From the IMG/VR virus record IMGVR_UViG_3300026270_000002: DNA of 42,147 bases; one strand, given 5' to 3'. Positions 5,347 to 42,147 of the stretch are shown one piece after another. This stretch comes from a virus. The position numbers were made by a program, and so were the translations under genes. Numbering within the stretch: the stretch's first letter is position 1; each line of letters begins with the position of its first letter. The notes beneath the pieces were generated by a model. That model ran no database searches and had not been told where the DNA came from. It worked only from the letters and a program-made list of their open reading frames with translations.

Positions 5347-5635
5347 AAAAAGGTATATCGTTATCGTTTCCTTTATACGATGGAGGTATGTCTTTGCGGT
5401 TAGCTTGGTAGTCATTATCTACATCAAACATATTTACCATTATTGATCCAGAATTTTCTTTGCCACTAAAGTCAGGTATCCCTGCAAAGTTTATCCATTT
5501 ATCTAACAGCATAAATTGTTTGCCTTGGTCATTCTCCATAATGACTCCAATGTTAACCCAATTTGCCTTGGGATTACCATCCCTATCTTTGTACTCTCGT
5601 GTCTTGACGGATAGGTTCTTGATCTTTCGTGCCAT
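5345..5635 (-). CDS. ssb: Short single-stranded DNA-binding protein-like protein
   Basis: Start taken at MARKIKNLSV (ATG at 5635). The C-terminus ...KGNDNDIPF resembles the bacterial SSB acidic tip (DDDIPF). The body is only about 96 aa, so the OB-fold is assumed rather than seen. Confidence 0.55.
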   Translation of the reverse strand: MARKIKNLSVKTREYKDRDGNPKANWVNIGVIMENDQGKQFMLLDKWINFAGIPDFSGKENSGSIMVNMFDVDNDYQANRKDIPPSYKGNDNDIPF

Positions 5636-5999: not shown

Positions 6000-6159
6000 T
6001 TTCTAACCTCTTTATTTCTGCCTTAATACGGTCATGGTTAACCTGCCAAAACCTACTATCTAAATCTTCAAACCACCATTGCCTATCTAATTCTGCAAGT
6101 TGGCATTTGTACCTTGCAATTTTTAAAATAGTTTCTTCCTTCATAGTTACTTGCTCCAT
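5992..6159 (-). CDS. Small hypothetical protein (55 aa, or 50 aa from ATG 6144), missed by the ORF track
   Basis: My translation: MEQVTMKEETILKIARYKCQLAELDRQWWFEDLDSRFWQVNHDRIKAEIKRLEND*. Its stop overlaps the rusA start (ATGATTGA). Confidence 0.35.
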   Translation of the reverse strand: MEQVTMKEETILKIARYKCQLAELDRQWWFEDLDSRFWQVNHDRIKAEIKRLEND

Positions 6160-6227
6160 AGTTTAATTAATAATTCTAGTTCTTTGATGCGTGTTTTAGC
6201 TGCTGCAATCTTTTGTTCAGTTGTCAT
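6147..6227 (-). CDS. Possible 26-aa micro-ORF (MTTEQKIAAAKTRIKELELLIKLWSK)
   Basis: The ATG overlaps the stop of the upstream gene (TAATG). It fills the gap between 6227 and 6159. Very short, so weakly supported. Confidence 0.2.
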   Translation of the reverse strand: MTTEQKIAAAKTRIKELELLIKLWSK

Positions 6228-7174
6228 TAAAATAGTACTCCTTGTGTAGTTGGTTCATATGACGCATCATATCTTTTGTTTTTACCTTTTGGATAAGGTT
6301 GAATTTTTAAGTTCAAATCTTTATGTATTTTATTCTTGTCCTTACCTTTTATAAATAAATAACGATGTTTTGGGCGTGGTTCATACCTTTCTTGTAAATG
6401 CAATTGCCTAATAACATCTTGCCTGTCTGGATACCATTCAAAATTAGTCATAAGATTATCTAATGAGTCATCAAAATTTAGTATTTTTTTTAATTTTATC
6501 CAATCGTCAACTGTTGGAAAACTAAAACCTTTGTCTAATCGAAACCAATGTGCAGCGGTATCTTTATATCCAAAGATTTTATCTAATTGATTAGCTGTAA
6601 ACTCACCTTTATTTTTTCTAAGAAAATTAGCTATTAAGACCCTATCTATATTCAGTTCATTTATTCTTCGTTTTCTATGCTTAATGTCTTTTCTACCTTT
6701 TAATCTGTCTAACACATGAGCTAAGTTTCTAAAATGAAATTCGTTTCCTTCTTTATCTATTAATTTTTTTTGATTAGCTGTTGTGCCTGTATATAAAAAA
6801 TTACAAGCTTGATATATGTAACCGTGATGGTTCATGTTAGTGTCACTAAAACTAATAATAATGTCAAAATTTTTTAATGATTTTATTGTTTTACTTACAA
6901 AAAAAGATAAACAATTTCTTGGTAATCCTTCACTAACACAAAGTCTATTAAGCTCTATGACTTTATCCTTATATTTTCTCCCTGCTATACTTTCACACAG
7001 AGTTGGACTAGCTGGCATTCCATAAGTGCAAACTCCTTGTAATGCATGATCTTTATATAAACCAAACGCAATGGTAATTGATGGTATTCTTTTTGCGTAA
7101 TGCTTTTTTAAAAACCAATCACGGCATTCAATAGTCATAATTTGTTTAACCATATAAGTACTAGGTATTGTCAT
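6227..7174 (-). CDS. Mom-like (GNAT-fold) putative DNA-modification acyltransferase with a roughly 150-aa C-terminal extension
   Basis: As I recall the family, the N-terminal half resembles Mom adenine-methylcarbamoylation proteins (WFLKKHYAKRIP..GVCTYGMPAS..IELNRLCV..SFSDTNMNHHGYIYQACNFLYTG). Start chosen at ATG 7174, behind AGGAGA. From memory, not searched. Confidence 0.5.
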   Translation of the reverse strand: MTIPSTYMVKQIMTIECRDWFLKKHYAKRIPSITIAFGLYKDHALQGVCTYGMPASPTLCESIAGRKYKDKVIELNRLCVSEGLPRNCLSFFVSKTIKSLKNFDIIISFSDTNMNHHGYIYQACNFLYTGTTANQKKLIDKEGNEFHFRNLAHVLDRLKGRKDIKHRKRRINELNIDRVLIANFLRKNKGEFTANQLDKIFGYKDTAAHWFRLDKGFSFPTVDDWIKLKKILNFDDSLDNLMTNFEWYPDRQDVIRQLHLQERYEPRPKHRYLFIKGKDKNKIHKDLNLKIQPYPKGKNKRYDASYEPTTQGVLF

Positions 7175-7946
7175 TATTTCTCCTGTAACTATCCCAATTA
7201 AATCCAATCAATGCCCCTCCGTTTTCACGCAACCTATCGGTTACACGTTCACCAAGGTAATCCGACAATTGGTCACTAGGAATATTTGATAACAAAATAG
7301 ATGGTTTAAGTTTTTCATATCTCTCATTTAATACATCAAACAATATTTGTTTTTCAAACTCTGATCCAAATTGTACGCCCACCTCATCCAGTATTAATAA
7401 ATCAGGCGATGCAAAGGCATTGATCACATCGCTTTCCGTTTCTTCTTTTGTTCTCCAACTGTCCTTAACTCTTCTTATAAGACGCTGTACGGTGACAAAT
7501 ACTGGTGACCGTTGTTGTTGCATAATGCTCAACGCAATGCCTACTGCCAAATGGGTTTTGCCTGTACCCACTTTGCCAACAAAGATTGCAGAACGTCCTG
7601 TTTTTATTACTTGGTCAAAGTCTTCTGCATACTCTTTAGCAAAAGCTAATGCCTTCTGTTGACCACTTGTCTTTGCTACATAGCTATCCAATGTCCGATC
7701 CTTAAATCGTTCTGGAATAGCTGCACTGCCTATCTTCGCTGCCCATATACGTTGCTCACGCTCTTGTTCACGAAGTTTGTCAGCTTTGATTTGCTCTAAG
7801 GCTTCCTTTTGCTTACGTTCCATCATGCATTTAGGACACTCTGTCCAATGCTCGCCAATAAAGTTTGTTGAAGTATACGCAACATTGTGTATAGAACAAG
7901 TGCGTTCTTCTGTCGGCCTGTCTTTGTTAATTAGATCTTCTAACAT
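7161..7946 (-). CDS. DnaC/IstB-like AAA+ helicase loader with an N-terminal zinc-finger-like motif
   Basis: Walker A GKVGTGKTH and Walker B LLILDEVG. N-terminal CSIH...CPKC. Start chosen at ATG 7946, behind GGAGACAGGAGGAG. Confidence 0.8.
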   Translation of the reverse strand: MLEDLINKDRPTEERTCSIHNVAYTSTNFIGEHWTECPKCMMERKQKEALEQIKADKLREQEREQRIWAAKIGSAAIPERFKDRTLDSYVAKTSGQQKALAFAKEYAEDFDQVIKTGRSAIFVGKVGTGKTHLAVGIALSIMQQQRSPVFVTVQRLIRRVKDSWRTKEETESDVINAFASPDLLILDEVGVQFGSEFEKQILFDVLNERYEKLKPSILLSNIPSDQLSDYLGERVTDRLRENGGALIGFNWDSYRRNNDNT

Positions 7947-8113
7947 TCTCCTCCTGTCTCCCAAGTTTCAATTTGTTTTTGAATTGTTTCTAAGCTTAGA
8001 ATCCACGCTTTTCTATCTATTATTTGGCTAGTACGAAATTGATTTAATAAATAATCAACACTTTTTTTAACTTGAAGCATTGCTTCGTATTCTTTTAGTG
8101 TTTGGAAAATCAT
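7940..8113 (-). CDS. Small hypothetical protein (57 aa), missed by the ORF track
   Basis: My translation: MIFQTLKEYEAMLQVKKSVDYLLNQFRTSQIIDRKAWILSLETIQKQIETWETGGEC*. Its start overlaps the upstream stop (ATGA) and its end overlaps the DnaC-like start. Confidence 0.4.
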   Translation of the reverse strand: MIFQTLKEYEAMLQVKKSVDYLLNQFRTSQIIDRKAWILSLETIQKQIETWETGGEC

Positions 8114-18017: not shown

Positions 18018-19697
18018 ATGAAAACAAAACGTGCAGACTTGTTAACAAGGTGGGGTCACCTTAGATCAGAAAGAGCTACATGGTGGTCACATTGGCAAGA
18101 AGTAACAACATATTTGTTACCTAGAAATGGACGTTATTTTGAGCAAGATAGGAATAAAGGTCATAGAAGACATAACTCGATATACGACAACACTGGTACA
18201 AGAGCGTTAAGAACATTAGGTGCAGGTATGATGGCAGGTGCAACATCCCCTGCAAGACCTTGGTTTAGGCTAGGAACGGCTGATCCAGACTTAAATAGGT
18301 ACGCACCTGTTAAGTTATGGCTTAATGACGTTACAGAACGTATGCAATTAGTGTTTCAGAAGTCTAATACATACCGCACATTACATGGAATATACGAAGA
18401 ATTAGGAGCATTTGGTACAGCAGGTTCTATTGTTTTGCCTGATCCTAAAACAGCCATACATCATTACCCTGTAACTGTTGGCGAATATGCAATAGCTACT
18501 GATTATCAAGGTAGAGTTAATACTTTGTATAGAGAATTTCAAAAAACTGTAGGGGAAACAGTAAGAGAATTTGGGTATAAGCAATGTTCAACGTCCGTTA
18601 AAAATCTGTATGACAGAGGTTCATTAGATCAATGGATAACTATTATTCATGCGATAGAACCAAGAGATGATAGAGAACGTGATTTTAAGAAGAAGGACAA
18701 TATGAACATGGCATACAAATCTTGTTATTTTGAACAAGGTGGTGATGGCGAAGATGTACTTAGAGAAAGTGGATATAAGGAATTCCCTGCTGTTGTACCT
18801 AGATGGGGCATAGCAGGTGGCGATATTTATGGTAATTCACCCGGAATGGAAGCATTAGGTGACATAAAACAGCTACAACATGAACAATTACGCAAGGCAC
18901 AAGGCATTGATTACCAAACAAAGCCACCATTACAAGTGCCTAGCTACATGAAAAACAGAGATGTAGATAGTTTGCCGGGTGGAGTTACGTTTATTGATGG
19001 TCAGCAAGGCAAAATTGAGACAGCGTTTAACGTAAATCTTAATTTAAATCATTTATTGGCAGACATACAAGACGTAAGACAGCGTATTAATAGTAGTTTT
19101 TATGCTGATTTGTTTTTAATGTTGGCAAATGCTACCGATACAAGGATGACTGCAACAGAGGTAGCAGAACGTCATGAAGAAAAATTGTTAATGTTAGGTC
19201 CAGTATTAGAAAGATTGCATAACGAATTGCTTGATCCGTTAATTGATAACACATTTAATAGGATGATTGAAGCAAATTTAGTGCCACCTGCACCAGAAGA
19301 GTTGCAAGGTATGGAATTAAACGTAGAATTTGTATCTATGTTGGCACAAGCACAACGCGCTATCGGTACAAATAGCATTGATAGATATGTAAATAACATG
19401 GGTATGGTTGCACAAATGAAACCTGATGTATTAGATAAGTTTGATTCTGATGCGTGGGCCGATGGATATGCCGATATGTTAGGCGTAGATCCTAAATTAG
19501 TAGTTGCTGGCGAAAAAGTAGCTAAGATACGACAAGCAAGAGCAGAACAACAACAGGCAATGGCACAACAAGAAGCACAACAACAAGCAGTAGAGAATGC
19601 AACTAAATTAAATAACAGTAAAACTGGTGAACCATCTATGCTGGACATGATGAACCAGTTTAGTGGTTACAACTCACCATCACCATTGGAGGTATAA
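18018..19697 (+). CDS. Portal protein (T7 gp8-type head-to-tail connector)
   Basis: LLTRWGHLRSERATWWSHWQEVTTYLLPRNGRYF...SPARPWFRLG is characteristic of this portal family. Size is 559 aa. Confidence 0.9.
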   Translation: MKTKRADLLTRWGHLRSERATWWSHWQEVTTYLLPRNGRYFEQDRNKGHRRHNSIYDNTGTRALRTLGAGMMAGATSPARPWFRLGTADPDLNRYAPVKLWLNDVTERMQLVFQKSNTYRTLHGIYEELGAFGTAGSIVLPDPKTAIHHYPVTVGEYAIATDYQGRVNTLYREFQKTVGETVREFGYKQCSTSVKNLYDRGSLDQWITIIHAIEPRDDRERDFKKKDNMNMAYKSCYFEQGGDGEDVLRESGYKEFPAVVPRWGIAGGDIYGNSPGMEALGDIKQLQHEQLRKAQGIDYQTKPPLQVPSYMKNRDVDSLPGGVTFIDGQQGKIETAFNVNLNLNHLLADIQDVRQRINSSFYADLFLMLANATDTRMTATEVAERHEEKLLMLGPVLERLHNELLDPLIDNTFNRMIEANLVPPAPEELQGMELNVEFVSMLAQAQRAIGTNSIDRYVNNMGMVAQMKPDVLDKFDSDAWADGYADMLGVDPKLVVAGEKVAKIRQARAEQQQAMAQQEAQQQAVENATKLNNSKTGEPSMLDMMNQFSGYNSPSPLEV

Positions 19698-29304: not shown

Positions 29305-32300
29305 ATGAGTTCATCAAATCCTTTTGATAATGTTGGAAACGATCAATTTTTAGGTGAAAGCTACGGATCTAATCAAAATAATTATGTAGATGACAATCCG
29401 TTTGATACTTATTTTAAAGTACAAGACAAACAAAAAGAAGAAGTACTAAAACAAGTTCTTAGTCTTGCACAAAAAAAAGATCCAAACAGAATTGGAAAAG
29501 CACAGATATTAGCTGAAGAATTAGGCATACCACCTGACATGGCACTAGATAATGAAGGTGTATTAGAAATATTAGAGGAAAGAAAAAAACAACAAGAAAT
29601 ACAAAATCTTAATGCACGAGATTTAGCATTAGTAAATCCATTGTTGGCAAAACAATTGCGTGATCCTAACTTTGCAGCAATAGCATATGACAATATTCCC
29701 AGACTACAAAAAACTGAAGGTTTATTTCCCGGTTTTAAAAAGTTAGCACAAAACTATTACGAAGGTGATGCAAGGGGAACTATCGCAAGAGAAATGGGAG
29801 ACATTGGAGATCGTTTAAAAACAAACGGTGTACCGTTTTTAGATACAAAAAGAGGATTTGAAGAAGGATATGTGCCCACTCAACAAGATTTAGATGACTT
29901 AGAAGCATTAAGAGTAATGGAAGAAAGATTAAGAGAATACGACAATAATGGTATTGGTCTTCTTGAAGGTTTCGCATATATGCCGGGTTTATTGCGTGGT
30001 GGTCAAATTGAAGCAATCACAGCAGGTTTAGTAACAGCCAAGGGAACAGATGTTGCAACAAAAGCACTTACTTCAACTTTTTTCTCTCAATTATTTGGTA
30101 ATGATGGCGGTGGCAATTTTATGGGCTACGGAGTTGGTTACGCAATTGGTCAGGTAGTTTCACCATTTATAAGTCTCTTTACTGGTATGAATGCTTATAC
30201 CAACAAAATGACTTTAGACATGAAACAAATAGCATCTGGTCATCAATATATGGAAGCAAGAAGTAGAGGTATAAGTGTAGAAAGAGCACAAGTATTAGCA
30301 GAAATAACTGGATGGAGTGAAGCTGCTATTGAAAGAGTAGGAATAGAATATTTTTCTCGTGTTTTAAAAAAAAGTGCACCGGGTTACTTAAAACTTATTG
30401 ACCCATTAACTAGTCCATTAATGAAAAAATCTGGATTAGATAAAGCAATAAACAGAGTATTTGCAAAAAATGTTTTAAGTAACGGTGGACGCAAACTTAC
30501 ATATAAAGCAGCATTATTTAGAGGTGCAACACAATATATGTCTAACGTAGGAGTAGAACTTACTACAGAATTATTACAAGAATTAAATGCAATTGCAGGT
30601 ATAAATTTATTTGCTGAATTTGAAGATGGAGTAACTCCAATTAGTGCAGTAGAAATAGGAGACAGAATTTATAACACAATGGATATGACTTTTAGAAGTA
30701 TGGTTTTATTTGGTTTATTGCCGTCAATAGGTAGTTTTGCAACTGATTTTACAGCGGCGAGCAAAGCAAAAAAAGATACCGCAATATTATCTAAGTTAAG
30801 TCAAATATCTAAAGATGACGTAACAAAAAAAAGAAATAAAACTGCATGGCAAAACTGGGTACAACAATTAGCCGATCAAAATAATGCAGACACAATACAT
30901 ATAAATGCACAGGAATTCAAACAACAATTAGATAACAATGCTATTACAGAACAGCAATTAGAATTGTTTTCACCAGAACTTGCTAATCAATTAAAAAATG
31001 CAGAAAAACAAGGTTTATCAGGAACAACTATACAAATAAAAACTGGTGATTATTTAGCAAATATTTCTGGTACAAAATTTGATGAGTCATTAAAACCACA
31101 TATAAAATTTGGTAGTGACCAAATGAGTTTGACAGAAGCTAATCAATTTTTTAAAGACCAGCCAGAAATATTAAAAGCAATGAAAGAAGAAGTTAGTAAA
31201 CAAAAAGACCAATTATTACAAGATCAAGAAGAATCAAGACAAATAGAATTACAAATTACAAACCAATTAAAGAATTTAAATATTTACAAACCACATAATG
31301 CCCGGTTTTTATCACGACTAATAGGAAATTTTGCAAAAACATATTCTCAATACACAAATCAAACACCTTCACAATTTATAAACGATCATTTTTATAACAT
31401 TCAATTAGACACTAAAAGTAAAAATTTTGGTCAACAATATTTTAATCAAGACGGAACAATAAAAACAGATTCGCCATTATTTAAAAACTGGTTTCGTAAA
31501 TCGAAAATGGTTAATAAAGATGGTACACCAATGGTTTTTTACCACGGAACTACAGACAATATAAGACAGTTTGATTTAGAACACCCAAACAGATTAGACA
31601 CAGGGTATTTAGGCAAAGGCATATACGTTACTCCTAACAAAGGATTGGCAAAGATTTATGCTGACATTAAAAAAAGTAGATTTAGAAAAAAAACAGAAGA
31701 TAAAAAAATATTAGAATTGTATGTACGTCTAGAAAATCCAAAAACAGTAAATGTAAATAGTGGGATTAAATCACAAAATAAAGATGGTGGTAAAGCAGCG
31801 GCAAATGCATACAAAGATAAATTAATTAACGAAGGACATGATGGTGTCATTATGGTTAATAATTCTGGAGAAATAGTAGAGGTAGCTGTTTTTGATGCAA
31901 ATGCTGTTAAGTCTGTAGACAATAGTGGTAACTGGTCTAACGAAATAAATGACATATATAAACAACAAGTTACAGAATCCTTTGAACAAAAAGCAACACA
32001 AAAACAAGGCAAGCCAGTATCAGAAGAAGTATTTCAATTAGCAAGAATTTTAGAAAATTTTGATTTTGCAAAGAGTAAACCTTTTGCAACTAATCGTGAT
32101 TTTAAATTAGAAATACAAGGTCGTATACAAGCTGCTGCTAAAAAAGCAGGTGTAAATTTAGCAGATTTTAGTGTAGAAACAGAAAAATATCTTGTAAGAA
32201 CTTTATTGGAAGACGCACGATTTGCTTTGACAGAAAATGCAAATGCTGTTGGTTGGTATGACGAAAAAGTATCTAAAGCAGTACGAATACTTTCTCTTGT

Positions 32301-35300
32301 ATATCCAAAAGTTGCTACTGATAAAAGACATGAATTTGTATTTAAATGGGCATTAGCAGCTACATCTAACGGTATAAAAGTAGATAAAAATTATGAGTAT
32401 GCAGCAGATGTATATGAAAAATGGTTGAGGTCAGAAGAAGAACTAGGTGAAGGTAAAGGCAGATTGCCAGAAAAAATGTTAAATGCACAAGGCGAAAAGA
32501 CAGGTGGTACTGCAAGAGCAGCAATGGAAAAATCTTTTAAAATATTAAATTTATTATTTGATAGAAAATCTTTTAAAGAAATAGAAGAATTTATGAGAAC
32601 TATGCATACTGTAAGAGAAGTGCATGAGTTTGTAGGAACATATAAAAATGGAAGACAAATAAAAGTAGGCGGTGGTTATGGATTAGATGAAATGGTTTAT
32701 GGTGCTGCAATAATGGGTCCAAAAATTGGTAATGGATTTTTTGCAAATTTAAATGGCAACTATGACCAATTAACTTTAGATAGATGGGCTATGCGTACAT
32801 GGGGTCGCATGACAGGTACGTTAGTTTTAAACAAACAAAAACAAGCAAAAATAAAAAGAGGGCAAATAAAACAAATAATTAAAGCTTTAACTAAGACACA
32901 GAAAAAAGCGTTTGAAGCAATTATTGGCAGAAAACTTACAATAGGTGACCTTGATCAATTAGCTATTGATATTGAAAAAGCATCTACTACAGAAGAAAAT
33001 CGTAAATTAATGGCACAAATAGCTACTTTTAAAGAAGATCCAAAACATAAAGAAATATATGTAGAAATTAATGGTAAGCCAAGAAAAGATGATGCCACAG
33101 TTTCTCTTGGTGACTACTTGCGTAAAAGAGGTAATTTATTAGCTAAAGATAATGATGGTCAAAAAGAAGCACCAAGTGGTGCTCCAGAAAGAAGAAATAT
33201 AGAAAAAGTTTTTGCACAAGTATTAGAAGTTTTGCAAAAAGATTATCCTTCTTTAACAATGGCAGATTTGCAAGCACTTGTTTGGTATCCAGAAAAAAAA
33301 TTATATGATTCTGCAAAATTAAAAGAAGCAGTAGTAGAAACAAATTACGAAGATAATGAAGCACCTGATTATGCCAATGCTGCTGTTGAATTTGCTGCTA
33401 GAATAGGTATACCAGATGAAGACATACAATCTGCAATACAGGAGGTGGATGATGAGTTACAGGCCGTTGAGCAATCAAGAGGAACACAACCTGATGCTGG
33501 AGGAAGAGGAGAGGTACGAGGAGATGATGGAACTTTCCAACAACAAGGAAGAATTGACGAAACCACAGGACTCCCTCTCAACCCAGATGGAACTGTCACC
33601 GTCTACCACCACACCAGTAGAAGAAACGCAGAACGAATCAGAGCGACAGGTGAACTTAGAAGTGCTGGAGAACCTGATGTCTACGTTACCACCAGAGCTA
33701 TCACGGATACTGGCTATGGTGATACAGCAGTTCCCATCAGGGTTGACCCAAAAATCCTTGAACCAAATGATGAATTCCCTAACGGACGAAGAGATTTCAA
33801 CATCAGACTTACAGATGCTGAAGGAAATCTTGTCTACGGAGGATCTATTCGAGTAAACGTTGGAGAGTTTGCACAGCAACAAGATTCTGACGGTGCTAGA
33901 GGTCGTTTTCAACCGGATACATTAACAGCATTATTTACTACACAAGCAGATTTCTCAACTTTTGCACATGAGAGTGCTCACTATATGTTAACTGTATTAG
34001 AAAATATAGTTACAGGAGAAAATGCCCCATTAGAACTAATAAATGATTTTAATATTTTATTAGATTTTTGGGGTGTAAAAGATTTAGAAACATGGAAATC
34101 TTTTGACATTGATCAAAAAAGAAAGTACCACGAATCATTTGCATATAACTTTGAAATTTATCTGTTTGAAGGTAAAGCTCCAAGCACGGCATTACAAGAA
34201 ATGTTTAGGAAATTTAGTAGATTTATTAAAAGAGTTTATACAGATGTTATTTACAAAGTTAACGCTGCTTATAAACAAGAAACTGGTCAAGACTTGCCTA
34301 TGCTTACTGACGAAGTAAGAAACGTAATGGACAGAATGTTAGCTGTTGATGAAGACATAGTACAAGCAAATGCAATATATGACATGAAAGGTATGTTCCA
34401 AACACAAGAACAAAGTGGGATGAATGATACAGAGTGGGCAGAATATACAGCAGCATTAGAAGAAGCAGAAAACGAATCAATAGAAATAATGACACGGCAA
34501 AGCATGAGACAAGTGCGTTGGTTAAATAACAAAAGAGAAAAAGTCAAAAAACAATTTGATAAAAAAGTTCTTAAATTGCGTCAAAAAATAGAACAAGAAG
34601 AACTTGAAAAATTAAAACAAGATCCAGTTTATAAAGTCCAATCATTTTTAAAACGTGGTGAAACTTATAATGAAAAAGGTGAATTAGTAAAAACAAAAGG
34701 TATTCATAAATTATCTATTAATAGCATCAAAAATTTAATACCATTTTATGACGAAGACGTAGCAAAAGCAGATATAAAAAAACTAGGTACTGGTCAAAAT
34801 GGCATGGTTAGAAAAAACGGTTTAGACGCAAAAGTTGTAGCAGATATGTTTGGGTTTCCATCAGGAGAATCATTGGTAAATGCATTATTAGAAATAAGAC
34901 CTATACAAGATGTTGTAAAAGAACGTACAGATCATCGTATGTTAGAAGAACATAGTGATTTAATTGATGACAGACAATTAGAATTACAAGTACAAGAAGC
35001 AATACATAACGAAGCAAGAGCAAGATTTATAGCAGTTGAACTAGGATTTTTAACAAAAGCTATGCAACCAGTAAGATATCAAGTTGCTGCTGCAAAACAA
35101 GTTGCTCAAGATATATTGGCAGAAATGAAATTATCAGAAATAAGACCGTCAGTATTTACAAGAGCAGAAGCTAATGCGTTAAAAGAAGCTGAAAAAGCAA
35201 TGAAAAGAAAAGATGCTGATTCTATTAGAGATGTTGTACAAGCAAAACGATCACAACTTTTAAACAATCAACTAGCAAAAGAAGCTATAGAAATACAAAA

Positions 35301-37968
35301 ACAATATAGAAAACAAGTTACAAATAGAGATTCTTTATTTAACAAGTTTTTTGGATCTGATAAAAAATTATTTAAAAAAGGCAAAAGTCAACGAAATTCA
35401 GATTTAGTAAGTGCGGGTAGAGCAATATTATCTTCTTATGGTATTGGACCAATAGTAGAAAATCCAATGGTGTATGTAGAAAATATGAAAGAATATGACA
35501 AATATATGTATGAAGAACTTAAGCCTATGATTGAGGACACACAAGCAGCCGAAGGTCAGGCAGATATTACAGATTTAACTTATGAAGAATTTTTAAATTT
35601 AAATGATTTGATGGAGTCTTTATGGCATCAATCTTTACGTCAAAATCAAATGAGAATACAAGGTGAATTAGTAGATATACAGCCATTAAAAGATACTTTA
35701 AATAATCGTATGAAAGTAATGATATCTAGAAGTAAAAGATTAAGTGCTAGAGCAGCAACACCTATTGGAACAACGGAAGCTGTACCAACATCATATGGCG
35801 ATTTTTTAGGGTTGTTAGGATTTGGAGCAAAACTGAGAAGAATGGAACCGTGGGTTGACATGATGGATGGAGCACAAGGTGTAAATCCGGGATTTCTTTC
35901 AGCAGTATTAGAATTAAAAGATGGCAAATTAGGTGATTTTTATAATACGTTATGGTTTCCAATGCGATCAGCATTAGATGAATACAGAGTAGATCAAACT
36001 ATTTATACAAAAGAATATGCAGAATTAGTTGGTGCTGTTGATTTTGGTAATACAGAAATTATGGCAAATGAATTTGCAATGGTTTCTGAAGAGTCTCAAG
36101 CATATAAATTTGGAGCAGAAAGTAATGGCAGAGGAAAAGTTGAATTGCTTGGAGCTATGCTGCATACAGGTAACGACAGCAATAAAAAGAAATTATTACT
36201 TGGCAGAAAATGGGGCAAACTTAACGAAGATGGGTCATTAGATTCAACTCATTGGGATGCGTTTGTAGAACGTATGATTAACGAGGGACATTTAACAAAA
36301 CAAGATTTTATATTTTTACAGTCAGTATGGGATTTAAATAAAAAGATGTTACCTCTTTTGCAAAAAGCACATAAAGAAACTGAAGGATATTATTTTAAAA
36401 TAGTTAAACCAACGCCAATTGTGAATAGATTTGGCGAATTTGAAGGAGGTTATGTACCTGCTAAAGGTGATCCAAATATGACAGATGTAAATATTAAAGA
36501 TGAAATAAGTACCGCAAAAATGGAGTTTAAAAATTCATTACCAAAAGTTGAAAACGGTATGACAAAAAAACGTAATGAGCAGTTTGCACAACCACTATCA
36601 TTGCATTTAGGCTATATGACAAAACATATAGATGACACACTACGTTATGCCCATATACAACCAGTAATCAAAGATTTATTAAAAATAATAGACGATAAAG
36701 AATTTACAAAGTTATTAAAAATTATAGATCCAACTATTAAAGATGAAATGATAATGCCTTGGTTAAAATCAGCAGCTAGTCAAAAAACATATTCACCTAG
36801 TGTGCTTGGTCCAAAAGCTGACGCACTTATACAAATTGGTAAACGTAGAACTGGTATGGGAATAATGTTTGGAAATTTAACAAACGCATTTACACAACTT
36901 ACAGGTTTATTCCCTGCACTTATAAAAGTAAAACCTAGACATTTAATAGAAGGCATAATTGAATACATGAAAGATAGAGAAGGCACAATGCAAAAAATTG
37001 CCGCAGCATCACCTTTCATGGCAGATAGACAACAGAATTTAATATTTGATATTCAAGGCAGGTTAAACGATTTAATTATAAATCCGGATAATTTTCAAAA
37101 AATGCAAGAGTGGAGTAAAGCTCATGGTTATTTTTTACAACAAACATTTCAAGGTATAACTGACGCTATTGTCTGGATTGGAACTGTTAACCAAGTAACT
37201 GAAAGAATGCCTGTAACTATGAGCAATGAAGAGGTAATGGCTGAAGCTATTAAACAAGCAGATGCAAATGTTCGTATGACACAAGATAGTTTATTGCCAG
37301 AAGACAGAGCAGCATTTCAAAACATGGACCCCATAATTCAATCATTAACACAATTTACTGGTTACTTTAATATGATTGCAAATTTAGATTTTACGCAATA
37401 TCAAAAGTTAGTTAAAGATGAAATAGGTTATAAAAATAAAGGTATAGGAACAGAGCAAGGATTTTATTTATATCTGTACACTATTCTTATGCCAGCAATA
37501 ATCTCAGGTCTTATTATGCGTGGTTTAGGTGGCAGATTAGGAGAAGACAAAGATGATGATGGCTATATACATGATGATGTAGCTAAAGCATTTTTAGGAG
37601 ATATTATGGGTTACAAGGCAGGTTTAATACCTGTAGTAGGACAACTTGCACTTATCCCAATAAATGCTCAAAATGATCTGCCTTGGGATGACGATATAGT
37701 TTCTAGCCCAAGTATTGAAGCATTGCAAGATTCGGCTCGTGTAATACTAGATCTTCCCATAACAATATTCCAAGAAGGTTTAGAAGGTACAACAGGAAAA
37801 CAAATAAGAGATGTTTCTACCTTGGTTACATTAAGAACTGGCATTCCATTTACACCATTAGGTAGAACATTTGGTTATTTACGAGATGTACAACGTGGCT
37901 ATGCTAAACCTAAAGGACCAGTTGATTTTATAAGAGGTGTTGTTACAGGTAAAACAGGTACAAGATAA
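29305..37968 (+). CDS. Giant (2,887 aa) internal/ejection polyvalent protein (gp16-position) with two ART-like modules, an HExxH module and C-terminal TM helices
   Basis: Uninterrupted ORF. Module 1: NWFRKSKMVNKDGTPMVFYHGT..GIYVT..GEIVEVAVFD, about 31477-31929. Module 2: TVTVYHHTS..DVYVTT..NDEFPNGRRDF, about 33560-33800. HESAH lies at 33967-33981, followed by YHESFAYNFEIYLFEGKAPS. The C-terminal hydrophobic helices are LYTILMPAIISGLIM and LIPVVGQLALIPI. Confidence 0.8.
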   Translation: MSSSNPFDNVGNDQFLGESYGSNQNNYVDDNPFDTYFKVQDKQKEEVLKQVLSLAQKKDPNRIGKAQILAEELGIPPDMALDNEGVLEILEERKKQQEIQNLNARDLALVNPLLAKQLRDPNFAAIAYDNIPRLQKTEGLFPGFKKLAQNYYEGDARGTIAREMGDIGDRLKTNGVPFLDTKRGFEEGYVPTQQDLDDLEALRVMEERLREYDNNGIGLLEGFAYMPGLLRGGQIEAITAGLVTAKGTDVATKALTSTFFSQLFGNDGGGNFMGYGVGYAIGQVVSPFISLFTGMNAYTNKMTLDMKQIASGHQYMEARSRGISVERAQVLAEITGWSEAAIERVGIEYFSRVLKKSAPGYLKLIDPLTSPLMKKSGLDKAINRVFAKNVLSNGGRKLTYKAALFRGATQYMSNVGVELTTELLQELNAIAGINLFAEFEDGVTPISAVEIGDRIYNTMDMTFRSMVLFGLLPSIGSFATDFTAASKAKKDTAILSKLSQISKDDVTKKRNKTAWQNWVQQLADQNNADTIHINAQEFKQQLDNNAITEQQLELFSPELANQLKNAEKQGLSGTTIQIKTGDYLANISGTKFDESLKPHIKFGSDQMSLTEANQFFKDQPEILKAMKEEVSKQKDQLLQDQEESRQIELQITNQLKNLNIYKPHNARFLSRLIGNFAKTYSQYTNQTPSQFINDHFYNIQLDTKSKNFGQQYFNQDGTIKTDSPLFKNWFRKSKMVNKDGTPMVFYHGTTDNIRQFDLEHPNRLDTGYLGKGIYVTPNKGLAKIYADIKKSRFRKKTEDKKILELYVRLENPKTVNVNSGIKSQNKDGGKAAANAYKDKLINEGHDGVIMVNNSGEIVEVAVFDANAVKSVDNSGNWSNEINDIYKQQVTESFEQKATQKQGKPVSEEVFQLARILENFDFAKSKPFATNRDFKLEIQGRIQAAAKKAGVNLADFSVETEKYLVRTLLEDARFALTENANAVGWYDEKVSKAVRILSLVYPKVATDKRHEFVFKWALAATSNGIKVDKNYEYAADVYEKWLRSEEELGEGKGRLPEKMLNAQGEKTGGTARAAMEKSFKILNLLFDRKSFKEIEEFMRTMHTVREVHEFVGTYKNGRQIKVGGGYGLDEMVYGAAIMGPKIGNGFFANLNGNYDQLTLDRWAMRTWGRMTGTLVLNKQKQAKIKRGQIKQIIKALTKTQKKAFEAIIGRKLTIGDLDQLAIDIEKASTTEENRKLMAQIATFKEDPKHKEIYVEINGKPRKDDATVSLGDYLRKRGNLLAKDNDGQKEAPSGAPERRNIEKVFAQVLEVLQKDYPSLTMADLQALVWYPEKKLYDSAKLKEAVVETNYEDNEAPDYANAAVEFAARIGIPDEDIQSAIQEVDDELQAVEQSRGTQPDAGGRGEVRGDDGTFQQQGRIDETTGLPLNPDGTVTVYHHTSRRNAERIRATGELRSAGEPDVYVTTRAITDTGYGDTAVPIRVDPKILEPNDEFPNGRRDFNIRLTDAEGNLVYGGSIRVNVGEFAQQQDSDGARGRFQPDTLTALFTTQADFSTFAHESAHYMLTVLENIVTGENAPLELINDFNILLDFWGVKDLETWKSFDIDQKRKYHESFAYNFEIYLFEGKAPSTALQEMFRKFSRFIKRVYTDVIYKVNAAYKQETGQDLPMLTDEVRNVMDRMLAVDEDIVQANAIYDMKGMFQTQEQSGMNDTEWAEYTAALEEAENESIEIMTRQSMRQVRWLNNKREKVKKQFDKKVLKLRQKIEQEELEKLKQDPVYKVQSFLKRGETYNEKGELVKTKGIHKLSINSIKNLIPFYDEDVAKADIKKLGTGQNGMVRKNGLDAKVVADMFGFPSGESLVNALLEIRPIQDVVKERTDHRMLEEHSDLIDDRQLELQVQEAIHNEARARFIAVELGFLTKAMQPVRYQVAAAKQVAQDILAEMKLSEIRPSVFTRAEANALKEAEKAMKRKDADSIRDVVQAKRSQLLNNQLAKEAIEIQKQYRKQVTNRDSLFNKFFGSDKKLFKKGKSQRNSDLVSAGRAILSSYGIGPIVENPMVYVENMKEYDKYMYEELKPMIEDTQAAEGQADITDLTYEEFLNLNDLMESLWHQSLRQNQMRIQGELVDIQPLKDTLNNRMKVMISRSKRLSARAATPIGTTEAVPTSYGDFLGLLGFGAKLRRMEPWVDMMDGAQGVNPGFLSAVLELKDGKLGDFYNTLWFPMRSALDEYRVDQTIYTKEYAELVGAVDFGNTEIMANEFAMVSEESQAYKFGAESNGRGKVELLGAMLHTGNDSNKKKLLLGRKWGKLNEDGSLDSTHWDAFVERMINEGHLTKQDFIFLQSVWDLNKKMLPLLQKAHKETEGYYFKIVKPTPIVNRFGEFEGGYVPAKGDPNMTDVNIKDEISTAKMEFKNSLPKVENGMTKKRNEQFAQPLSLHLGYMTKHIDDTLRYAHIQPVIKDLLKIIDDKEFTKLLKIIDPTIKDEMIMPWLKSAASQKTYSPSVLGPKADALIQIGKRRTGMGIMFGNLTNAFTQLTGLFPALIKVKPRHLIEGIIEYMKDREGTMQKIAAASPFMADRQQNLIFDIQGRLNDLIINPDNFQKMQEWSKAHGYFLQQTFQGITDAIVWIGTVNQVTERMPVTMSNEEVMAEAIKQADANVRMTQDSLLPEDRAAFQNMDPIIQSLTQFTGYFNMIANLDFTQYQKLVKDEIGYKNKGIGTEQGFYLYLYTILMPAIISGLIMRGLGGRLGEDKDDDGYIHDDVAKAFLGDIMGYKAGLIPVVGQLALIPINAQNDLPWDDDIVSSPSIEALQDSARVILDLPITIFQEGLEGTTGKQIRDVSTLVTLRTGIPFTPLGRTFGYLRDVQRGYAKPKGPVDFIRGVVTGKTGTR

Positions 37969-37973
37969 TAAAA

Positions 37974-38004
37974 GTGTGACCGTAATCTATAAAGTTATTG
38001 ATAA
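37974..38004 (+). promoter_or_regulatory. GTGTGACCGTAA motif, copy 4, plus TTGATAA box (candidate late promoter)
   Basis: The exact 12-mer at 37974-37985 lies 5 nt after the giant gene's stop. TTGATAA starts 24 nt after the motif start. The next ATG is at 38035. Confidence 0.55.
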
Positions 38005-38034
38005 CCTTAATAAGATAGTGAAAATGTCTAGTTA

Positions 38035-41000
38035 ATGACGATAAATTCGACTACACGAAAGACTAGTAATTTGGCCGGAAATGGCAATACTCATACATAT
38101 CCGTTTGCCTTTAAAGTTTTTACAGACGCAGATGTAGTTGTAAAAAAATTAGAAGTTAGTACAAGTATAGAAACTACCTTAACTCTAGGTGCTAACAATG
38201 ATTATATAGTTACTTTAAATTCAGATCAAAATGGTAATCCCGGTGGAAGCATAACCTTAAAATCAGGTGGTAACAATTTTAATTTACCTTCTGGTTTTCA
38301 ACTTGTTATTACATCTGCTGTAGAACCATTACAAGGAACAGATCTTACTAACCAAGGTGGATTTTACCCAGAGGTTATTAATGACGCTTTAGATCAAGCA
38401 GTTATATTGCACCAACAACAGCAAGATGAATTAGATAGATCAATTAAATTTTCATTAACTAATACTATTGGTAGTTTAGAAATTACAGAAAACGCTAACG
38501 CTCGTAAAAACAGAGTATTAGGTTTTGACAATTTAGGTGAGTTTGAAGTATTAAAAGAACTAGGAACATATCGTGGTAATTGGGCTGCTGGTACTTCTTA
38601 TGCAGTAAGAGATCTTGTTAAAGATACATCTACAAATAATATTTTCTTTTGTAATACAGCACATACTTCACAAGGTGCACAGCCATTAACAACTAATACT
38701 AACTCTGCAAATTGGGATTTAATAGTAGACGCAGCATCATCTACTACTGCACAAAATAATGCAGCGGCATCCGCTACTGCATCCGCAAATTCTGCCACTG
38801 CCGCAGCTTCATCTCAAACGGCAGCAGCAAATAGTGCGACGGCCGCAGCAACGTCTGAAACAAATGCAAGTAATTCTGCAACTACTGCATCTACAAAAGC
38901 GACACAAGCAGACGCATCTAAAACAGCCGCCCAAACTGCGCAAGCCGCAGCGGAACTTGCACTTGATACTTTTGATGACAGATATTTAGGAGCAAAACAA
39001 AGCGACCCGGCTACGGATAATGACGGTAATGCACTTATAGATGGAGCGTTATATTACAACACAACATCTAACATAACTAAAGTTTATGATTTAGGTACAA
39101 CATCTTGGTTAGTTGTAAATATAACTGGTACTGATCTAACAAATACAAATACAGTTGCTGGTGCGATTAGTAACGTTAATACAGTAAGCAGCAACATTTC
39201 TAATGTAAATGCAGTTGCTAGTAATTCTAGTAATATTAACGCTGTAGCTGGAAATAACAGCAATATTAATACAGTTGCAGCAGCTAATACAAATGTTAAT
39301 TCTGTAGCTGGCAGTATTGCAAACGTAAATACTGTGGCAAGCAATATATCCAACGTCAATACAGTAGCAGCGGATATCGCTAAAGTAGTTACTGTCGCTA
39401 ATGATTTAAATGAAACTGTTTCAGAAATAGAAACAGCAGCAGCAGATTTACAAGAAACAACTTCAGAAATAGATACTGTTGCTAATGCAATTACTAATGT
39501 AAACCTAGTAGGAAATAATATAAGTAATATCAATGCAATAGGTACTATTCTTGCAGGTCAAACTACATATGCAGTAACTGTTGCTAATGGTGTTTTCTAT
39601 ATTGATGGTGCTGCTAATCCAACTCTAAGTATTATTAGAGGGTTTACATATATATTTGACCAATCGAACAATTCAAATGCTGGGCATCCATTAGCTTTTA
39701 AAGATGGAAGTGGCAATGCTTATACAACTGGAGTAACTGTTAACGGTACGGCAGGTCAATCAAATGCAAATGTAACTTTTGTTGTACCTTCAAATGCCCC
39801 TGCATCAATGCGTTATTACTGTACACAACATGGTAATGGTATGGGTAATACTATTACAGTTGGTGATGACAATATTGGTGTTGTAGCAGGTGATATAAAT
39901 AACGTTAATACTGTTGCAGGTTCAATCTCTAACGTAAATAATGTTGGTGGTAGTATTGCAAATGTTAACTCTGTTGCTAGTAATTTAAGTGGTGTTAATG
40001 CATTTGCTGAAAGATATAGAACAGATAATAGTGGTAATAATCCATCAACTAATAATGATGGTGGTGATTTATTTTTTAACCAAGCAAGCGGTAAATTACT
40101 TGTTTATAACGCTAACACTTCTGCATGGGAAGAAACACAATCTGTTGGTAACTTTTTTATAAATACTATTAGCAGTTTTAGTGGCACTGGTGGTAATAGT
40201 GCAACGTTTAATGGATCTGCATACAAATTTACATTAAGCAATGCAGGTCAGTTTGCTCAACAAATGTTGGTAAGTGTTGCTGGTGTAGTACAAAAACCAA
40301 ATACAGGCACAGGACAACCTAGTGAAGGGTTTGCTTTAGATGGTGCAAACATTGTTTTTGCTGCTCCACCTCCAGCCGGGGCTGATTATTTTATAGTTAC
40401 TATTGGTGCGTCTGTAAGTATTGGTACGCCTAGCGATGGCACTATTACAGAAGCCAAATTAAATGCTAGTAACAATCCTGTTAATGGATATTTTTTACAA
40501 GCACAATCTGGTGCAGCAGGTGGTTTAACTTGGGCTGCTGTAGATCTTACTAATCTAAGTGCAAGCAATTTAACTTCTGGTACTTTACCTAATGCTAGAT
40601 TCCCTGCAACATTGCCAGCAGTTAGTGGAGCAAATCTAACTAATTTACCAGCAGGTAATTTAACAGGCACAGTAGCAGATGCTCGTATCACAAGTTTAAC
40701 AGCATCAAAATTAACAGGTGCTTTGCCCGCCATAGACGGATCAAACCTTACAGGTATTACCTCAACAACTATAAACAACAACGCAAACAATAGAATTATT
40801 ACTGGTTCTGGAACTGCAAATACTTTAGAAGGTGAATCAACCTTAACCTTTGATGGTACAAATTTACTTTTTGGTGCTGGTAGAAGTCTTAGATTTACCT
40901 CTGGTGGAGGTTGGTCAGGTAATAGTGCTATGAAGATTGAAGGTCATAATAATCATCTTTATCTTTGTGGTGGATCAAGTGGATTTATCTTTAGAGATAC

Positions 41001-41259
41001 TGGTGGTACTGACCAATGGGGTATCAATAGTAGTGGACATTTTTTTCCTCAAAGTAACAATACTTACGATATAGGTACTACAAGTTATAGAGTAAGAAAC
41101 ATCTACACTAATGACCTTAACTTATCTAACGAAGGTTCTTCTAATGACGTTGACGGAACTTGGGGAAGTTATACTATACAAGAAGGAGCAGAAGATCTTT
41201 TCTTGGTGAACAAACGCAATGGTAAAAAATATAAATTTAATTTAACGGAGGTAACATAA
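38035..41259 (+). CDS. Tail fiber 1 (1,074 aa): Ala/Ser/Thr coiled coil, decapeptide-repeat shaft, embedded cupredoxin-like domain, conserved C-terminal domain
   Basis: AELALDTFDDRYLGAKQSDPATDNDGNALIDGALYYNT is a classic phage fiber segment. The xIxNVNxVAx repeats and the C-terminus NLSNEGSSNDVDGTWGSYTIQEGAEDLFLVNKRNGKKYKFNL also fit. Confidence 0.85.
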   Translation: MTINSTTRKTSNLAGNGNTHTYPFAFKVFTDADVVVKKLEVSTSIETTLTLGANNDYIVTLNSDQNGNPGGSITLKSGGNNFNLPSGFQLVITSAVEPLQGTDLTNQGGFYPEVINDALDQAVILHQQQQDELDRSIKFSLTNTIGSLEITENANARKNRVLGFDNLGEFEVLKELGTYRGNWAAGTSYAVRDLVKDTSTNNIFFCNTAHTSQGAQPLTTNTNSANWDLIVDAASSTTAQNNAAASATASANSATAAASSQTAAANSATAAATSETNASNSATTASTKATQADASKTAAQTAQAAAELALDTFDDRYLGAKQSDPATDNDGNALIDGALYYNTTSNITKVYDLGTTSWLVVNITGTDLTNTNTVAGAISNVNTVSSNISNVNAVASNSSNINAVAGNNSNINTVAAANTNVNSVAGSIANVNTVASNISNVNTVAADIAKVVTVANDLNETVSEIETAAADLQETTSEIDTVANAITNVNLVGNNISNINAIGTILAGQTTYAVTVANGVFYIDGAANPTLSIIRGFTYIFDQSNNSNAGHPLAFKDGSGNAYTTGVTVNGTAGQSNANVTFVVPSNAPASMRYYCTQHGNGMGNTITVGDDNIGVVAGDINNVNTVAGSISNVNNVGGSIANVNSVASNLSGVNAFAERYRTDNSGNNPSTNNDGGDLFFNQASGKLLVYNANTSAWEETQSVGNFFINTISSFSGTGGNSATFNGSAYKFTLSNAGQFAQQMLVSVAGVVQKPNTGTGQPSEGFALDGANIVFAAPPPAGADYFIVTIGASVSIGTPSDGTITEAKLNASNNPVNGYFLQAQSGAAGGLTWAAVDLTNLSASNLTSGTLPNARFPATLPAVSGANLTNLPAGNLTGTVADARITSLTASKLTGALPAIDGSNLTGITSTTINNNANNRIITGSGTANTLEGESTLTFDGTNLLFGAGRSLRFTSGGGWSGNSAMKIEGHNNHLYLCGGSSGFIFRDTGGTDQWGINSSGHFFPQSNNTYDIGTTSYRVRNIYTNDLNLSNEGSSNDVDGTWGSYTIQEGAEDLFLVNKRNGKKYKFNLTEVT
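39139..39543 (+). repeat. Array of about 30-nt (10-aa) imperfect tandem repeats in tail fiber 1
   Basis: ISNVNTVSSN / ISNVNAVASN / SSNINAVAGN / NSNINTVAAA / NTNVNSVAGS / IANVNTVASN / ISNVNTVAAD / IAKVVTVAND, then ETVSEIET / ETTSEIDT and two further NV(I)N units. Confidence 0.85.
39871..40005 (+). repeat. Second block of the same decapeptide repeats, downstream of the cupredoxin-like domain
   Basis: GVVAGDINNVNTVAGSISNVNNVGGSIANVNSVASNLSGVNAF. Confidence 0.8.
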
Positions 41260-41696
41260 TGGCTATTGTTTTTCCAGAAGGTACACAAAATTACAGAAAT
41301 AGAATTTTGCAAACACAATTTAATTTTGCTAATAATAATGTTTATAATAACAGCAATACTTTTGCAGAAAGCCAATGCAATGTAGCTATAACTCCTTTAG
41401 AATCAAATAGTACAATTATTATTGAAGTTAATTGTATGCAATGGATAAGTGGTAATGTTTACCATAAACAACAATTAAGATGTACAGGTGGTACTACAAA
41501 TAACGACATAGGTACATACGCTGATGTTTATGGTAGTGGTGTTTCGTACGCTGGCTATTGGCTATACACACATACTTCACACAATACTACTTCAGCCCTT
41601 ACTTATAAAATTTGGTTTACAAGAGGTTATTTTCCTAATAATAGTAATGGTGGTAACTTATCTTGGTTTATGAAAGCAACGGAGTATGCAGCATGA
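41259..41696 (+). CDS. Hypothetical tail-module protein (145 aa)
   Basis: ORF-track entry. Its ATG overlaps the fiber stop (TAATG). Asn/Thr/Tyr-rich and probably beta-rich. No family recognised. Confidence 0.5.
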   Translation: MAIVFPEGTQNYRNRILQTQFNFANNNVYNNSNTFAESQCNVAITPLESNSTIIIEVNCMQWISGNVYHKQQLRCTGGTTNNDIGTYADVYGSGVSYAGYWLYTHTSHNTTSALTYKIWFTRGYFPNNSNGGNLSWFMKATEYAA

Positions 41697-41983
41697 TTAC
41701 TAAACATCAAATTATTTGTGATCTATATAAAGACAAAGGTGTCGAAGTTGTTTACGGAAATGAAGATGGCTCATTTACTGCAACTAAAATTGATGGCACA
41801 GTTGTAGCTATAGATCAAAGTGCAGTAGATACAGAATTTGCTAAACAAGAATATAAAAATAACAGGCAAATGGAGTATCCAGATTGGGGTACACAGTTAG
41901 ACTATATTTACCATAACGGAATTGACAAATGGAAGGCAGATATAGTCGATCCTGTCAAAGCCAAATACCCAAAACCTAACTAA
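41693..41983 (+). CDS. Hypothetical tail-module protein (96 aa), possibly a fiber assembly factor
   Basis: Start chosen at ATG 41693 (an ATGA overlap, with GGAG 9 nt upstream). It lies between the two fiber genes. No family recognised. Confidence 0.5.
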   Translation: MITKHQIICDLYKDKGVEVVYGNEDGSFTATKIDGTVVAIDQSAVDTEFAKQEYKNNRQMEYPDWGTQLDYIYHNGIDKWKADIVDPVKAKYPKPN

Positions 41984-41985
41984 TT

Positions 41986-42147
41986 ATGGGATTAACAAAA
42001 ATTTCTACTGATGGTGTAAAAGATCAAAATGTTGATCTTACTAAATTGCCACATGGCGATAGTAATAATGATGGTAAATTTTTACGAGCTAATAACGGTG
42101 CAGACCCTACATATGAAACTGTTAATACTGATTTAAGTGCTGACAGT
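41986..42147 (+). CDS. Tail fiber 2, 5' part (continues at nt 100 of the window through the terminal overlap)
   Basis: MGLTKISTDGVKDQNVDLTKLPHGDSNNDGKFLRANNGADPTYETVNTDLSADS runs off the window end in the same frame as nt 1 onward. Confidence 0.8.
   Translation, partial: MGLTKISTDGVKDQNVDLTKLPHGDSNNDGKFLRANNGADPTYETVNTDLSADS
42049..42147. repeat. Terminal overlap copy 2 (identical to 1-99)
   Basis: Direct comparison with the window start. Confidence 0.95.

Follow-up and report, generated by a model that had tools for sequence, protein, structure and literature searches.

The tail-fiber gene of the virus sequence recorded in IMG/VR as IMGVR_UViG_3300026270_000002 (42,147 nucleotides, the whole of which we call the window) encodes, within the repeat-built shaft of the fiber, a domain of about 100 residues that is predicted to have the cupredoxin fold and that carries a complete set of candidate type-1 (T1) copper ligands. 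Our overall reading, to which we give a probability of roughly 60%, is that this domain is a metal-clamped accessory knob on the fiber, with Cu, or possibly Zn, as the metal. The domain belongs to a very large marine branch of the known cupredoxin superfamily that is carried on virion and cell surfaces, and it is this branch that is new. The gene, the domain and the candidate ligands lie as follows (window coordinates; aa, amino acids).

38035..41259, + strand: tail-fiber gene, an open reading frame (ORF) of 1074 aa with matches to PHROG tail and tail-fiber families along its full length
39559..39864, + strand: cupredoxin-like domain, fiber aa 509-610 (hidden Markov model envelope aa 509-610; AlphaFold2 model aa 507-612)
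39685..39687, + strand: His551, candidate N-terminal His ligand in the motif GHPLAF, just ahead of strand 4; aligns with plastocyanin His37
39820..39822, + strand: Cys596, candidate thiolate ligand at the end of strand 7; aligns with plastocyanin Cys84
39829..39831, + strand: His599, candidate second His ligand in the loop between strands 7 and 8; aligns with plastocyanin His87
39841..39843, + strand: Met603, candidate axial ligand at the start of strand 8; aligns with plastocyanin Met92

An earlier note on this DNA, made from the sequence alone, had quoted the domain and placed the ligand codons at 39685, 39820, 39829 and 39841; the quoted sequence is present in the 1074-aa ORF and the codons are where the note put them. 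The ligand loop YYCTQHGNGMG has the spacing C-x2-H-x3-M, His551 lies 45 residues upstream of the cysteine, and Cys596 is the sole Cys of the domain. The note had also set this loop beside that of plastocyanin as a parallel; its spacing for the window is right, but the plastocyanin loop that it quoted is C-x2-H-x4-M, and the x3 spacing here is intermediate between those of amicyanin (x2) and plastocyanin (x4). The whole fiber contains only 3 Cys, 8 His and 5 Met, and a C-x2-H-x(2-4)-M motif, whose expected number is 3e-4, was present in 7 of 20,000 shuffles of the fiber.

Predicted fold and relationship to known cupredoxins

The AlphaFold2 model of aa 507-612, built from a 42-sequence alignment of relatives (alignment A2), is all-beta with nine strands, and has a mean pLDDT of 97.5 and a pTM of 0.89. 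In the model H551 precedes strand E47-51, C596 ends strand E85-90, H599 lies in the loop and M603 falls in E94-104. When the model was compared with the PDB by Foldseek, all of the 50 best matches listed were cupredoxins (best E 2.2e-4, TM 0.5-0.6), and no Ig or FN3 fold was among them. The matches listed include rusticyanin, the cupredoxin domain of the Hyphomicrobium nitrite reductase, AcoP, plastocyanin, pseudoazurin and two- and three-domain laccases, with Phormidium and spinach plastocyanin at TM 0.56-0.60 and an rmsd of ~4.3 Å. Structural matches in BFVD, up to TM 0.91, are cyanophage fiber, baseplate and 'virion structural' proteins. On the strength of this model we are very confident that the domain has the cupredoxin fold, of the plastocyanin type, which upholds the fold that the earlier note had proposed.

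Profile comparisons against cupredoxin reference sequences were made with hhalign. A five-sequence plastocyanin profile was the best profile match to the family profile (P = 3e-4), and a mixed plastocyanin/amicyanin/pseudoazurin profile of eight sequences gave P = 2.2e-4 over 77 columns. The beta-sandwich controls (FN3, Ig VH, b2m and SOD1) gave P = 0.05-0.55, with FN3 and Ig at ~0.05, and P lay at 0.011-0.075 for single sequences of amicyanin, pseudoazurin, azurin, rusticyanin and plantacyanin. These single-sequence values are near or only slightly better than the controls; the five-sequence and eight-sequence profiles alone are informative. hhalign pairs each of the four candidate ligands with its plastocyanin counterpart as listed above, and this register, together with the predicted strand topology, agrees with the earlier claim of a complete type-1 ligand set at the canonical places.

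Curated sequence models reach some members of the family. One relative with tandem copies (P0129) passes the gathering threshold of PF00127 Copper-bind (23.5 vs 21.2 bits), and TIGR02656 is matched by two members at 0.006. The only Pfam family reached by several members (7 of 42 at E <= 10) is PF25489, the 'At5g54830-like domain', whose gathering threshold of 27 bits is passed by P0129 (29.5) and P0136 (29.8) and to which the window domain has no match. Pfam Ig families weakly match at most one of the 42 members, and the five PHROG families matched by the domain are annotated tail fiber, baseplate wedge or connector. Weak matches to antibody V-domains, SUMO and the like in PDB sequence searches were rejected as chance, driven by 'YYC'.

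These results also bear on the suggestion that the ligand motif is a chance or artefactual feature of an Ig-like or other beta-sandwich whose fold is not that of a cupredoxin. The PDB sequence searches, which give only those weak, YYC-driven antibody V-domain matches, could be read in that way. The suggestion is contradicted by the rarity of the motif among the shuffles, the exclusively cupredoxin identity of the 50 best structural matches listed, the insignificant hhalign controls and the passage of one family member, P0129, over the Copper-bind threshold, and we consider it exceedingly improbable.

Among known systems, the closest by sequence are the cyanobacterial plastocyanins, and the closest by structure are the small cupredoxins and the T1 domains of multicopper oxidases. 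Like plastocyanin (PF00127/TIGR02656), the domain is a Greek-key beta-sandwich of ~100 residues with His...Cys-x2-His-xn-Met in the same strands and loop, and the distance from the first His to the Cys is 45 residues here and 47 in plastocyanin. The fiber motif YYCxxHxxxGMxGxITV is nearly the same as YTYYCAPHRGAGMVGKITV of cyanobacterial plastocyanin. There are clear differences, however: identity is ~21% and the window domain scores below the thresholds of the curated models, the ligand loop is shorter (x3 or x2 vs x4), Pro rather than Asn follows the first His, and the family has conserved motifs of its own (TYxFDQSxxSNxGHP and YTTGVT). Plastocyanin is moreover a free electron carrier, whereas this module is embedded in fibers, baseplates, a capsid protein and surface lipoproteins. 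Recent capture of petE, the cyanophage plastocyanin gene, was considered as an origin and set aside in view of the ~21% identity and the lack of any Foldseek preference for plastocyanin over other cupredoxins.

The amicyanin spacing C-x2-H-x2-M recurs in 76 copies of the family, and rusticyanin and AcoP are the top Foldseek matches; unlike the fiber domain, all three are redox proteins of the periplasm, either soluble or anchored, whose partners are defined, and the hhalign matches to single amicyanin and rusticyanin sequences are insignificant. Multicopper oxidases and copper nitrite reductase, many of which are among the Foldseek matches listed, also carry cupredoxin domains as modules of larger proteins. 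The domain here differs from these enzymes: it lacks a trinuclear or T2 site, HxH motifs and any partner domain, and it is present as a single copy in the fiber.

Distribution of the family and conservation of the candidate ligands

By tblastn the domain is found in 350 phage records, nearly all of them marine; phages of Synechococcus and Prochlorococcus and other cyanophages account for 335, and the remainder include Methylophilales and Pelagibacter phages and marine single-virus genomes. An exhaustive HMMER search recovered 7,937 representative clusters (50% identity) at E <= 1e-3, of which the weakest may be inflated because the query profile took in some flanking repeat columns, and 4,535 at E <= 1e-10; one protein of 3815 aa has up to 26 matched stretches. 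The family is thus very large, and it is poorly covered by Pfam. Full-text literature searches found no paper linking cupredoxins or plastocyanin-like domains with tail fibers, cyanophage structural proteins or virions, and nothing relevant on blue copper and bacteriophage structural proteins. The earlier note had called such a module unusual, and with respect to the literature and to annotation that is fair, but the counts of phage records and clusters show that it is not so in nature.

In cyanophages and in the phages of SAR11 and OM43, the family occurs in proteins of the fiber and the baseplate. In Marine Group II (MGII) archaea, on contigs of up to 550 kb, the domain closes the C-terminus of lipoproteins that have a lipobox followed by collagen triple-helix repeats (L009 5023-6300 and L012 5014-6321). 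SAR86 lipoproteins have a lipobox, a Pro/Thr linker and a lamin-tail domain ahead of the C-terminal domain (L033 4051-6312 and L028 4039-6312). The MGII and SAR86 copies all keep C-x2-H-x2-M, and because these proteins are lipoproteins with signal peptides, the cellular relatives are extracytoplasmic like the classical cupredoxins. A further copy with intact candidate ligands (YKCNNHLGMG) is inserted in the second jelly roll of a major capsid protein paralogue of the nucleocytoplasmic large DNA virus (NCLDV) type. Every context of the family that was examined is a virion surface or a cell surface.

The contig that carries the capsid copy, PABN01000098.1 (L003), is labelled as part of a Dehalococcoidia metagenome-assembled genome but is in fact a mis-binned piece of a large DNA virus of eukaryote type. 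Side by side on it lie two double-jelly-roll major capsid paralogues (4915-6702 and 6717-8015), and it also encodes minor capsid proteins like P2 and P9 of PBCV; it is the longer of the two paralogues that bears the cupredoxin-like domain.

The earlier note had suggested a survey of homologous fibers for conservation of the ligands. Among 348 full-length copies, which are the best matches to a profile built from ligand-bearing sequences and are phylogenetically non-independent, all four residues are kept in 236, three in 10, two in 11, one in 82 and none in 9, and the distribution is bimodal. The Cys and the second His occur together in 241 of these copies, are both missing in 98 and are discordant in 9, and the spacing from that His to the Met is x3 in 160 copies and x2 in 76. 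The candidate ligands are accordingly kept or lost as a set, and the survey bears out strong conservation in that form. The full set of four is retained by proteins with 35-48% identity to the window in cultured phages that represent four host groups (S-TIM5 gp134, two S-SSM4 baseplate proteins, P-SSM2 gp028, the Melnitz, Mosig and Baldr fibers, and P-SCSP2 gene 33); it is present in eight of nine cultured-phage copies, and in the P-SCSP2 copy as well. It is also intact in every archaeal and bacterial relative recovered, and His551 is invariant in alignment A2.

Loss of the set is seen most clearly in uncultured SU10-like podophages of 35-38 kb (L047/L048 8001-8513), in which the gene directly following that of the tail 'Collar' protein encodes a protein of 162-170 aa that consists of the domain and a tail of ~55 aa. 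Most of these copies read YYYSSGGGTYG, with the Cys, His and Met lost together, and the orthologues P0058 and P0086 (74-77% identical) keep YYYCANHSGMG. Judged by their sequences, these proteins form a natural ligand-knockout pair, and because ligand-bearing and ligand-free orthologues with ~80% identity exist, the family offers a built-in natural experiment on what the metal would do. A tblastn search of cultured phages with one ligand-free protein of 162 aa (P0014) found no match, and its AlphaFold prediction from a shallow alignment (A3) has a pLDDT of 52.5. A second case is gp080 of cyanophage PSS2 (L045 3998-4336), a stand-alone protein of 112 aa annotated 'baseplate wedge subunit' that consists solely of this domain and has lost the ligands, with D/A/T/M at the four positions.

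Placement in the fiber shaft and possible role of the domain

The earlier note had described the domain as embedded in the fiber shaft between blocks of a decapeptide repeat, and both the translation and comparison with the fiber of pelagiphage Greip support this placement. The repeats, all read from the translation, are as follows.

39136..39399, + strand: upstream block of about nine 10-residue xIxNVNxVAx repeats, aa ~368-455
39475..39543, + strand: two more decapeptide repeats, aa 481-503, directly ahead of the cupredoxin-like domain
39865..40014, + strand: downstream block of five decapeptide repeats, aa 611-660, ending at the conserved ...VNAFAERYR junction

A non-repeat spacer (aa 456-480) parts the main upstream block from the two further repeats, and the domain is flanked in phase by xIxNVNxVAx repeats on both sides. 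Tandem Repeats Finder found no 30-nucleotide tandem array, and the decapeptide repeat exists at the protein level only. The window fiber is collinear with that of Greip, aa 1-445 corresponding to Greip 1-461 and aa 613-691 to Greip 416-492; the upstream block is collinear with the Greip repeat array, and the downstream block aligns within Greip aa 416-492, where Greip has no intervening domain. The Greip array is uninterrupted and has no counterpart of window aa ~446-612.

Placement of the domain varies in other phages. In the Baldr fiber it is near the C-terminus (aa 602-706), and in P-SCSP2 it is on a separate protein encoded two genes downstream of the fiber gene. The cryo-EM study of P-SCSP1u resolved the fiber at its N-terminus only and does not mention a cupredoxin-like domain (PMC10575957). 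Because its presence and placement differ in this way among Greip, Baldr, P-SCSP2 and P-SCSP1u, the domain is a mobile accessory cassette that lies outside the conserved fiber architecture and is not the distal tip.

The mechanism that we favor starts from this cassette. A cupredoxin-fold module was inserted in phase into the repeat shaft of a podovirus fiber, and its type-1-style site (His551, Cys596, His599 and Met603) would bind one metal ion, most likely Cu. Zn is also possible because the fiber folds in the host cytoplasm, and cupredoxins expressed in the cytoplasm are known to pick up Zn. The metal would tie the short C-terminal ligand loop to strand 4 and stiffen a small knob on each chain; if there are six trimers, as in P-SCSP1u, each fiber would have three knobs and each virion ~18. 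A plastocyanin-like arrangement, with both termini at the pole away from the site, would turn the metal outward from the shaft. The knob would be an accessory that makes surface contacts or adds stability, comparable to the Ig-like decoration domains of other phages, and the P-SCSP1u-like C-terminal half would supply the primary receptor-binding tip. Taken by itself, binding of some metal by the domain seems probable.

The phage Ig-like decoration domains (Hoc, Big_2, FN3 and I-set) are also small beta-sandwich modules at variable positions in fiber, baseplate and capsid proteins, are dispensable in close relatives, and are thought to give weak accessory adhesion. The domain described here differs from them in its predicted fold, the cupredoxin Greek key, and in its conserved four-residue candidate metal-ligand set. 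Metal within a tail fiber has a parallel in the Fe-coordinating HxH repeats of T4 gp37, although the site here is a predicted one; the gp37 iron lies on the trimer axis and is bound by His from three shaft chains, whereas here a self-contained site on each chain is predicted. The preprint bioRxiv 10.1101/674382 states the Ferrojan Horse hypothesis, which concerns iron in tail fibers and gives the comparison with gp37 its marine trace-metal angle; among known ideas it is the closest precedent in concept.

Several observations weigh against this metal-clamped knob. The window domain has no Pfam or NCBIfam match at E <= 10 (including PF00127, PF13473 and TIGR02656), PDB sequence searches with a single sequence and with a profile match no cupredoxin, and the structural similarity to solved cupredoxins is moderate (TM 0.5-0.6, rmsd 4-7 Å, best E 2e-4). 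Phage fibers fold in the cytoplasm, where free Cu is scarce, and presumably become extracellular only after lysis. Ligand-free relatives are viable, for example the SU10-like 162-aa proteins, PSS2 gp080 and the majority of the copies that the giant repeat proteins P0127 and P0131 contain, so the fold does not need metal; and since the first His is kept where the Cys, second His and Met are gone, it may be conserved for another reason or have a second role. The ligand tally carries the sampling bias given above. Finally, Pro follows the first His both in the window and in 219 copies of the family; the classical small cupredoxins have Asn there, which hydrogen-bonds the Cys thiolate. Rusticyanin (Ser86) and the T1 sites of multicopper oxidases (His-Pro) also deviate at this position, and Asn is thus not an absolute requirement; the laccase motif HPxHLHGH of the T1 sites gives precedent for His-Pro at the first ligand.

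Some of these points would fit a purely structural sandwich that has no metal in the virion and serves as a spacer or decoration, with the ligands kept for folding or packing or inherited from an ancestor that bound copper. Many copies in the same kinds of protein have no ligands, the domain is dispensable in related fibers, fibers assemble in the cytoplasm, and the window domain fails the curated cupredoxin sequence models. However, at 35-48% identity the four residues survive in phages from four host groups, lipoproteins of archaea and bacteria have them too, copies mostly have four or one of them rather than intermediate numbers, and a lone exposed Cys is otherwise disfavored in an extracellular protein. 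Known copper-free cupredoxin-like domains (CyoA and the ENOD-like phytocyanins) have moreover lost their ligands. We regard a metal-free sandwich as rather unlikely.

A more active role has also to be weighed, in which a redox-active blue-copper centre takes a direct part in infection by exchanging electrons with, or being recognized by, a component of the host envelope, or in which virion-bound copper exploits host copper handling in analogy with the Ferrojan Horse. It draws on the same ligand evidence as the metal-clamped knob, and on the confinement of the family to viruses of marine plankton and cell-surface proteins; the insertion in a giant-virus-type capsid shows selection for external display, and the iron precedent is discussed in the literature (bioRxiv 10.1101/674382). 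Against it, those window proteins that were scanned included neither a partner protein nor a reductase, and no gene for copper handling, and uncultured phages that are abundant maintain close orthologues without the Cys, His and Met. Infection in general cannot depend on the domain, since the otherwise collinear fibers of Greip and P-SCSP1u (gp28) lack it. Plastocyanin has its known partners within the thylakoid lumen, and there are none in SAR11 and OM43 hosts. In either form such a role seems to us quite improbable.

Because many ocean viruses and plankton cells bear on their exterior a module that keeps these residues, virus particles may carry bound metal, probably copper. A wider proposal, which we put forward only tentatively and think doubtful as a whole, is that ocean virions (tailed phages that infect Prochlorococcus, Synechococcus, SAR11 or OM43, and at least one capsid of the giant-virus type) display copper-loaded type-1 sites, that these virions and the MGII and SAR86 lipoproteins are an unrecognized class of very strong copper ligands of seawater, and that occupancy modulates stability or adsorption. 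If true, copper-loaded virions would be the copper counterpart of the Ferrojan Horse hypothesis, extending virus-bound trace metals from iron to copper, and would offer marine chemistry a concrete and testable account of some of the strong copper ligands in seawater.

An occupied site would make this domain the first case in which a virion is shown to have a blue-copper-type centre built into its structure, and a very large cupredoxin family, now mostly overlooked by domain databases, would be defined with it. For bioinorganic chemistry the domain offers a minimal T1 loop (C-x2-H-x2/3-M) with His-Pro in the second sphere on a scaffold of ~100 residues, and for phage biology a new kind of mobile accessory module in fibers, baseplates and capsids. 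If the site is empty, it would still be a well-defined cupredoxin-like decoration domain by which thousands of 'hypothetical' marine viral structural proteins could be annotated.

Mosaic structure of the fiber and neighboring genes

The remaining parts of the fiber are the attachment domain and the distal half.

38035..38517, + strand: N-terminal tail-attachment domain, fiber aa 1-161 (phrog_13893 and phrog_1640, 'tail protein', match aa 1-161)
39967..41253, + strand: distal half of the fiber, aa 645-1073, homologous to Prochlorococcus podophage fibers

Fiber aa 9-137 are matched by the N-termini of tailspikes and fibers in the PDB. The distal half, which is presumably the receptor-binding part, is 62% identical to its match in P-SSP3, and PDB entry 8i4m_e (P-SCSP1u gp28) matches the window fiber only at aa 645-841 and 952-1073.

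The fiber is a mosaic: its N-terminal half is like the fibers of SAR11 podophages (Greip and HTVC204P, ~42-48%), and its C-terminal 430 aa are like those of Prochlorococcus podophages (P-SSP3, 62%; P-SCSP1u gp28, PDB 8i4m). The portal gene (18018-19697) is closest to those of BPP-1-like and freshwater podophages (64-74%), and because the affinities of the fiber and portal disagree, the host cannot be read from any single gene. At 41056-41264, which covers the last ~200 nucleotides of the fiber gene and the junction to the next ORF, the window has 86% DNA identity to ~20 genomes of Prochlorococcus phage P-SCSP1; this is the sole nucleotide-level match in a 12-kb query (window 30000-42147), and it suggests that the C-terminal end of the fiber was recently exchanged. 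An assembly collection queried for the exact sequence of the window fiber had no entry for it. Nearer the N-terminus, fiber aa 182-227 (window 38578-38715) weakly match carbohydrate-binding module family 5/12 (E = 0.0065, below the Pfam cut-off), and this stretch falls in a conserved segment, YRGNWAAGTSYAVRDLVKD...FFCNTAHTS, that is common to pelagiphage fibers.

Upstream of the fiber gene, the portal, capsid, tail-tube and internal-protein genes form a podovirus structural module, in which genes for the terminase, portal, major head protein and tail proteins are followed by that for a 2887-aa polyvalent protein and then by the fiber gene. The ORF of this 'polyvalent protein', just upstream of the fiber gene (29305-37968, + strand), has an ART-PolyVal ADP-ribosyltransferase domain at aa 737-874 and an LPD22 domain at aa 53-150, and its product is presumably an internal virion protein that is ejected and that carries a host-modifying enzyme. 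The left end of the window (487-1620, + strand) encodes a protein of 377 aa, possibly a further surface or decoration protein, which contains Ig-like domains of the IPT/TIG and He_PIG families and matches no PHROG.

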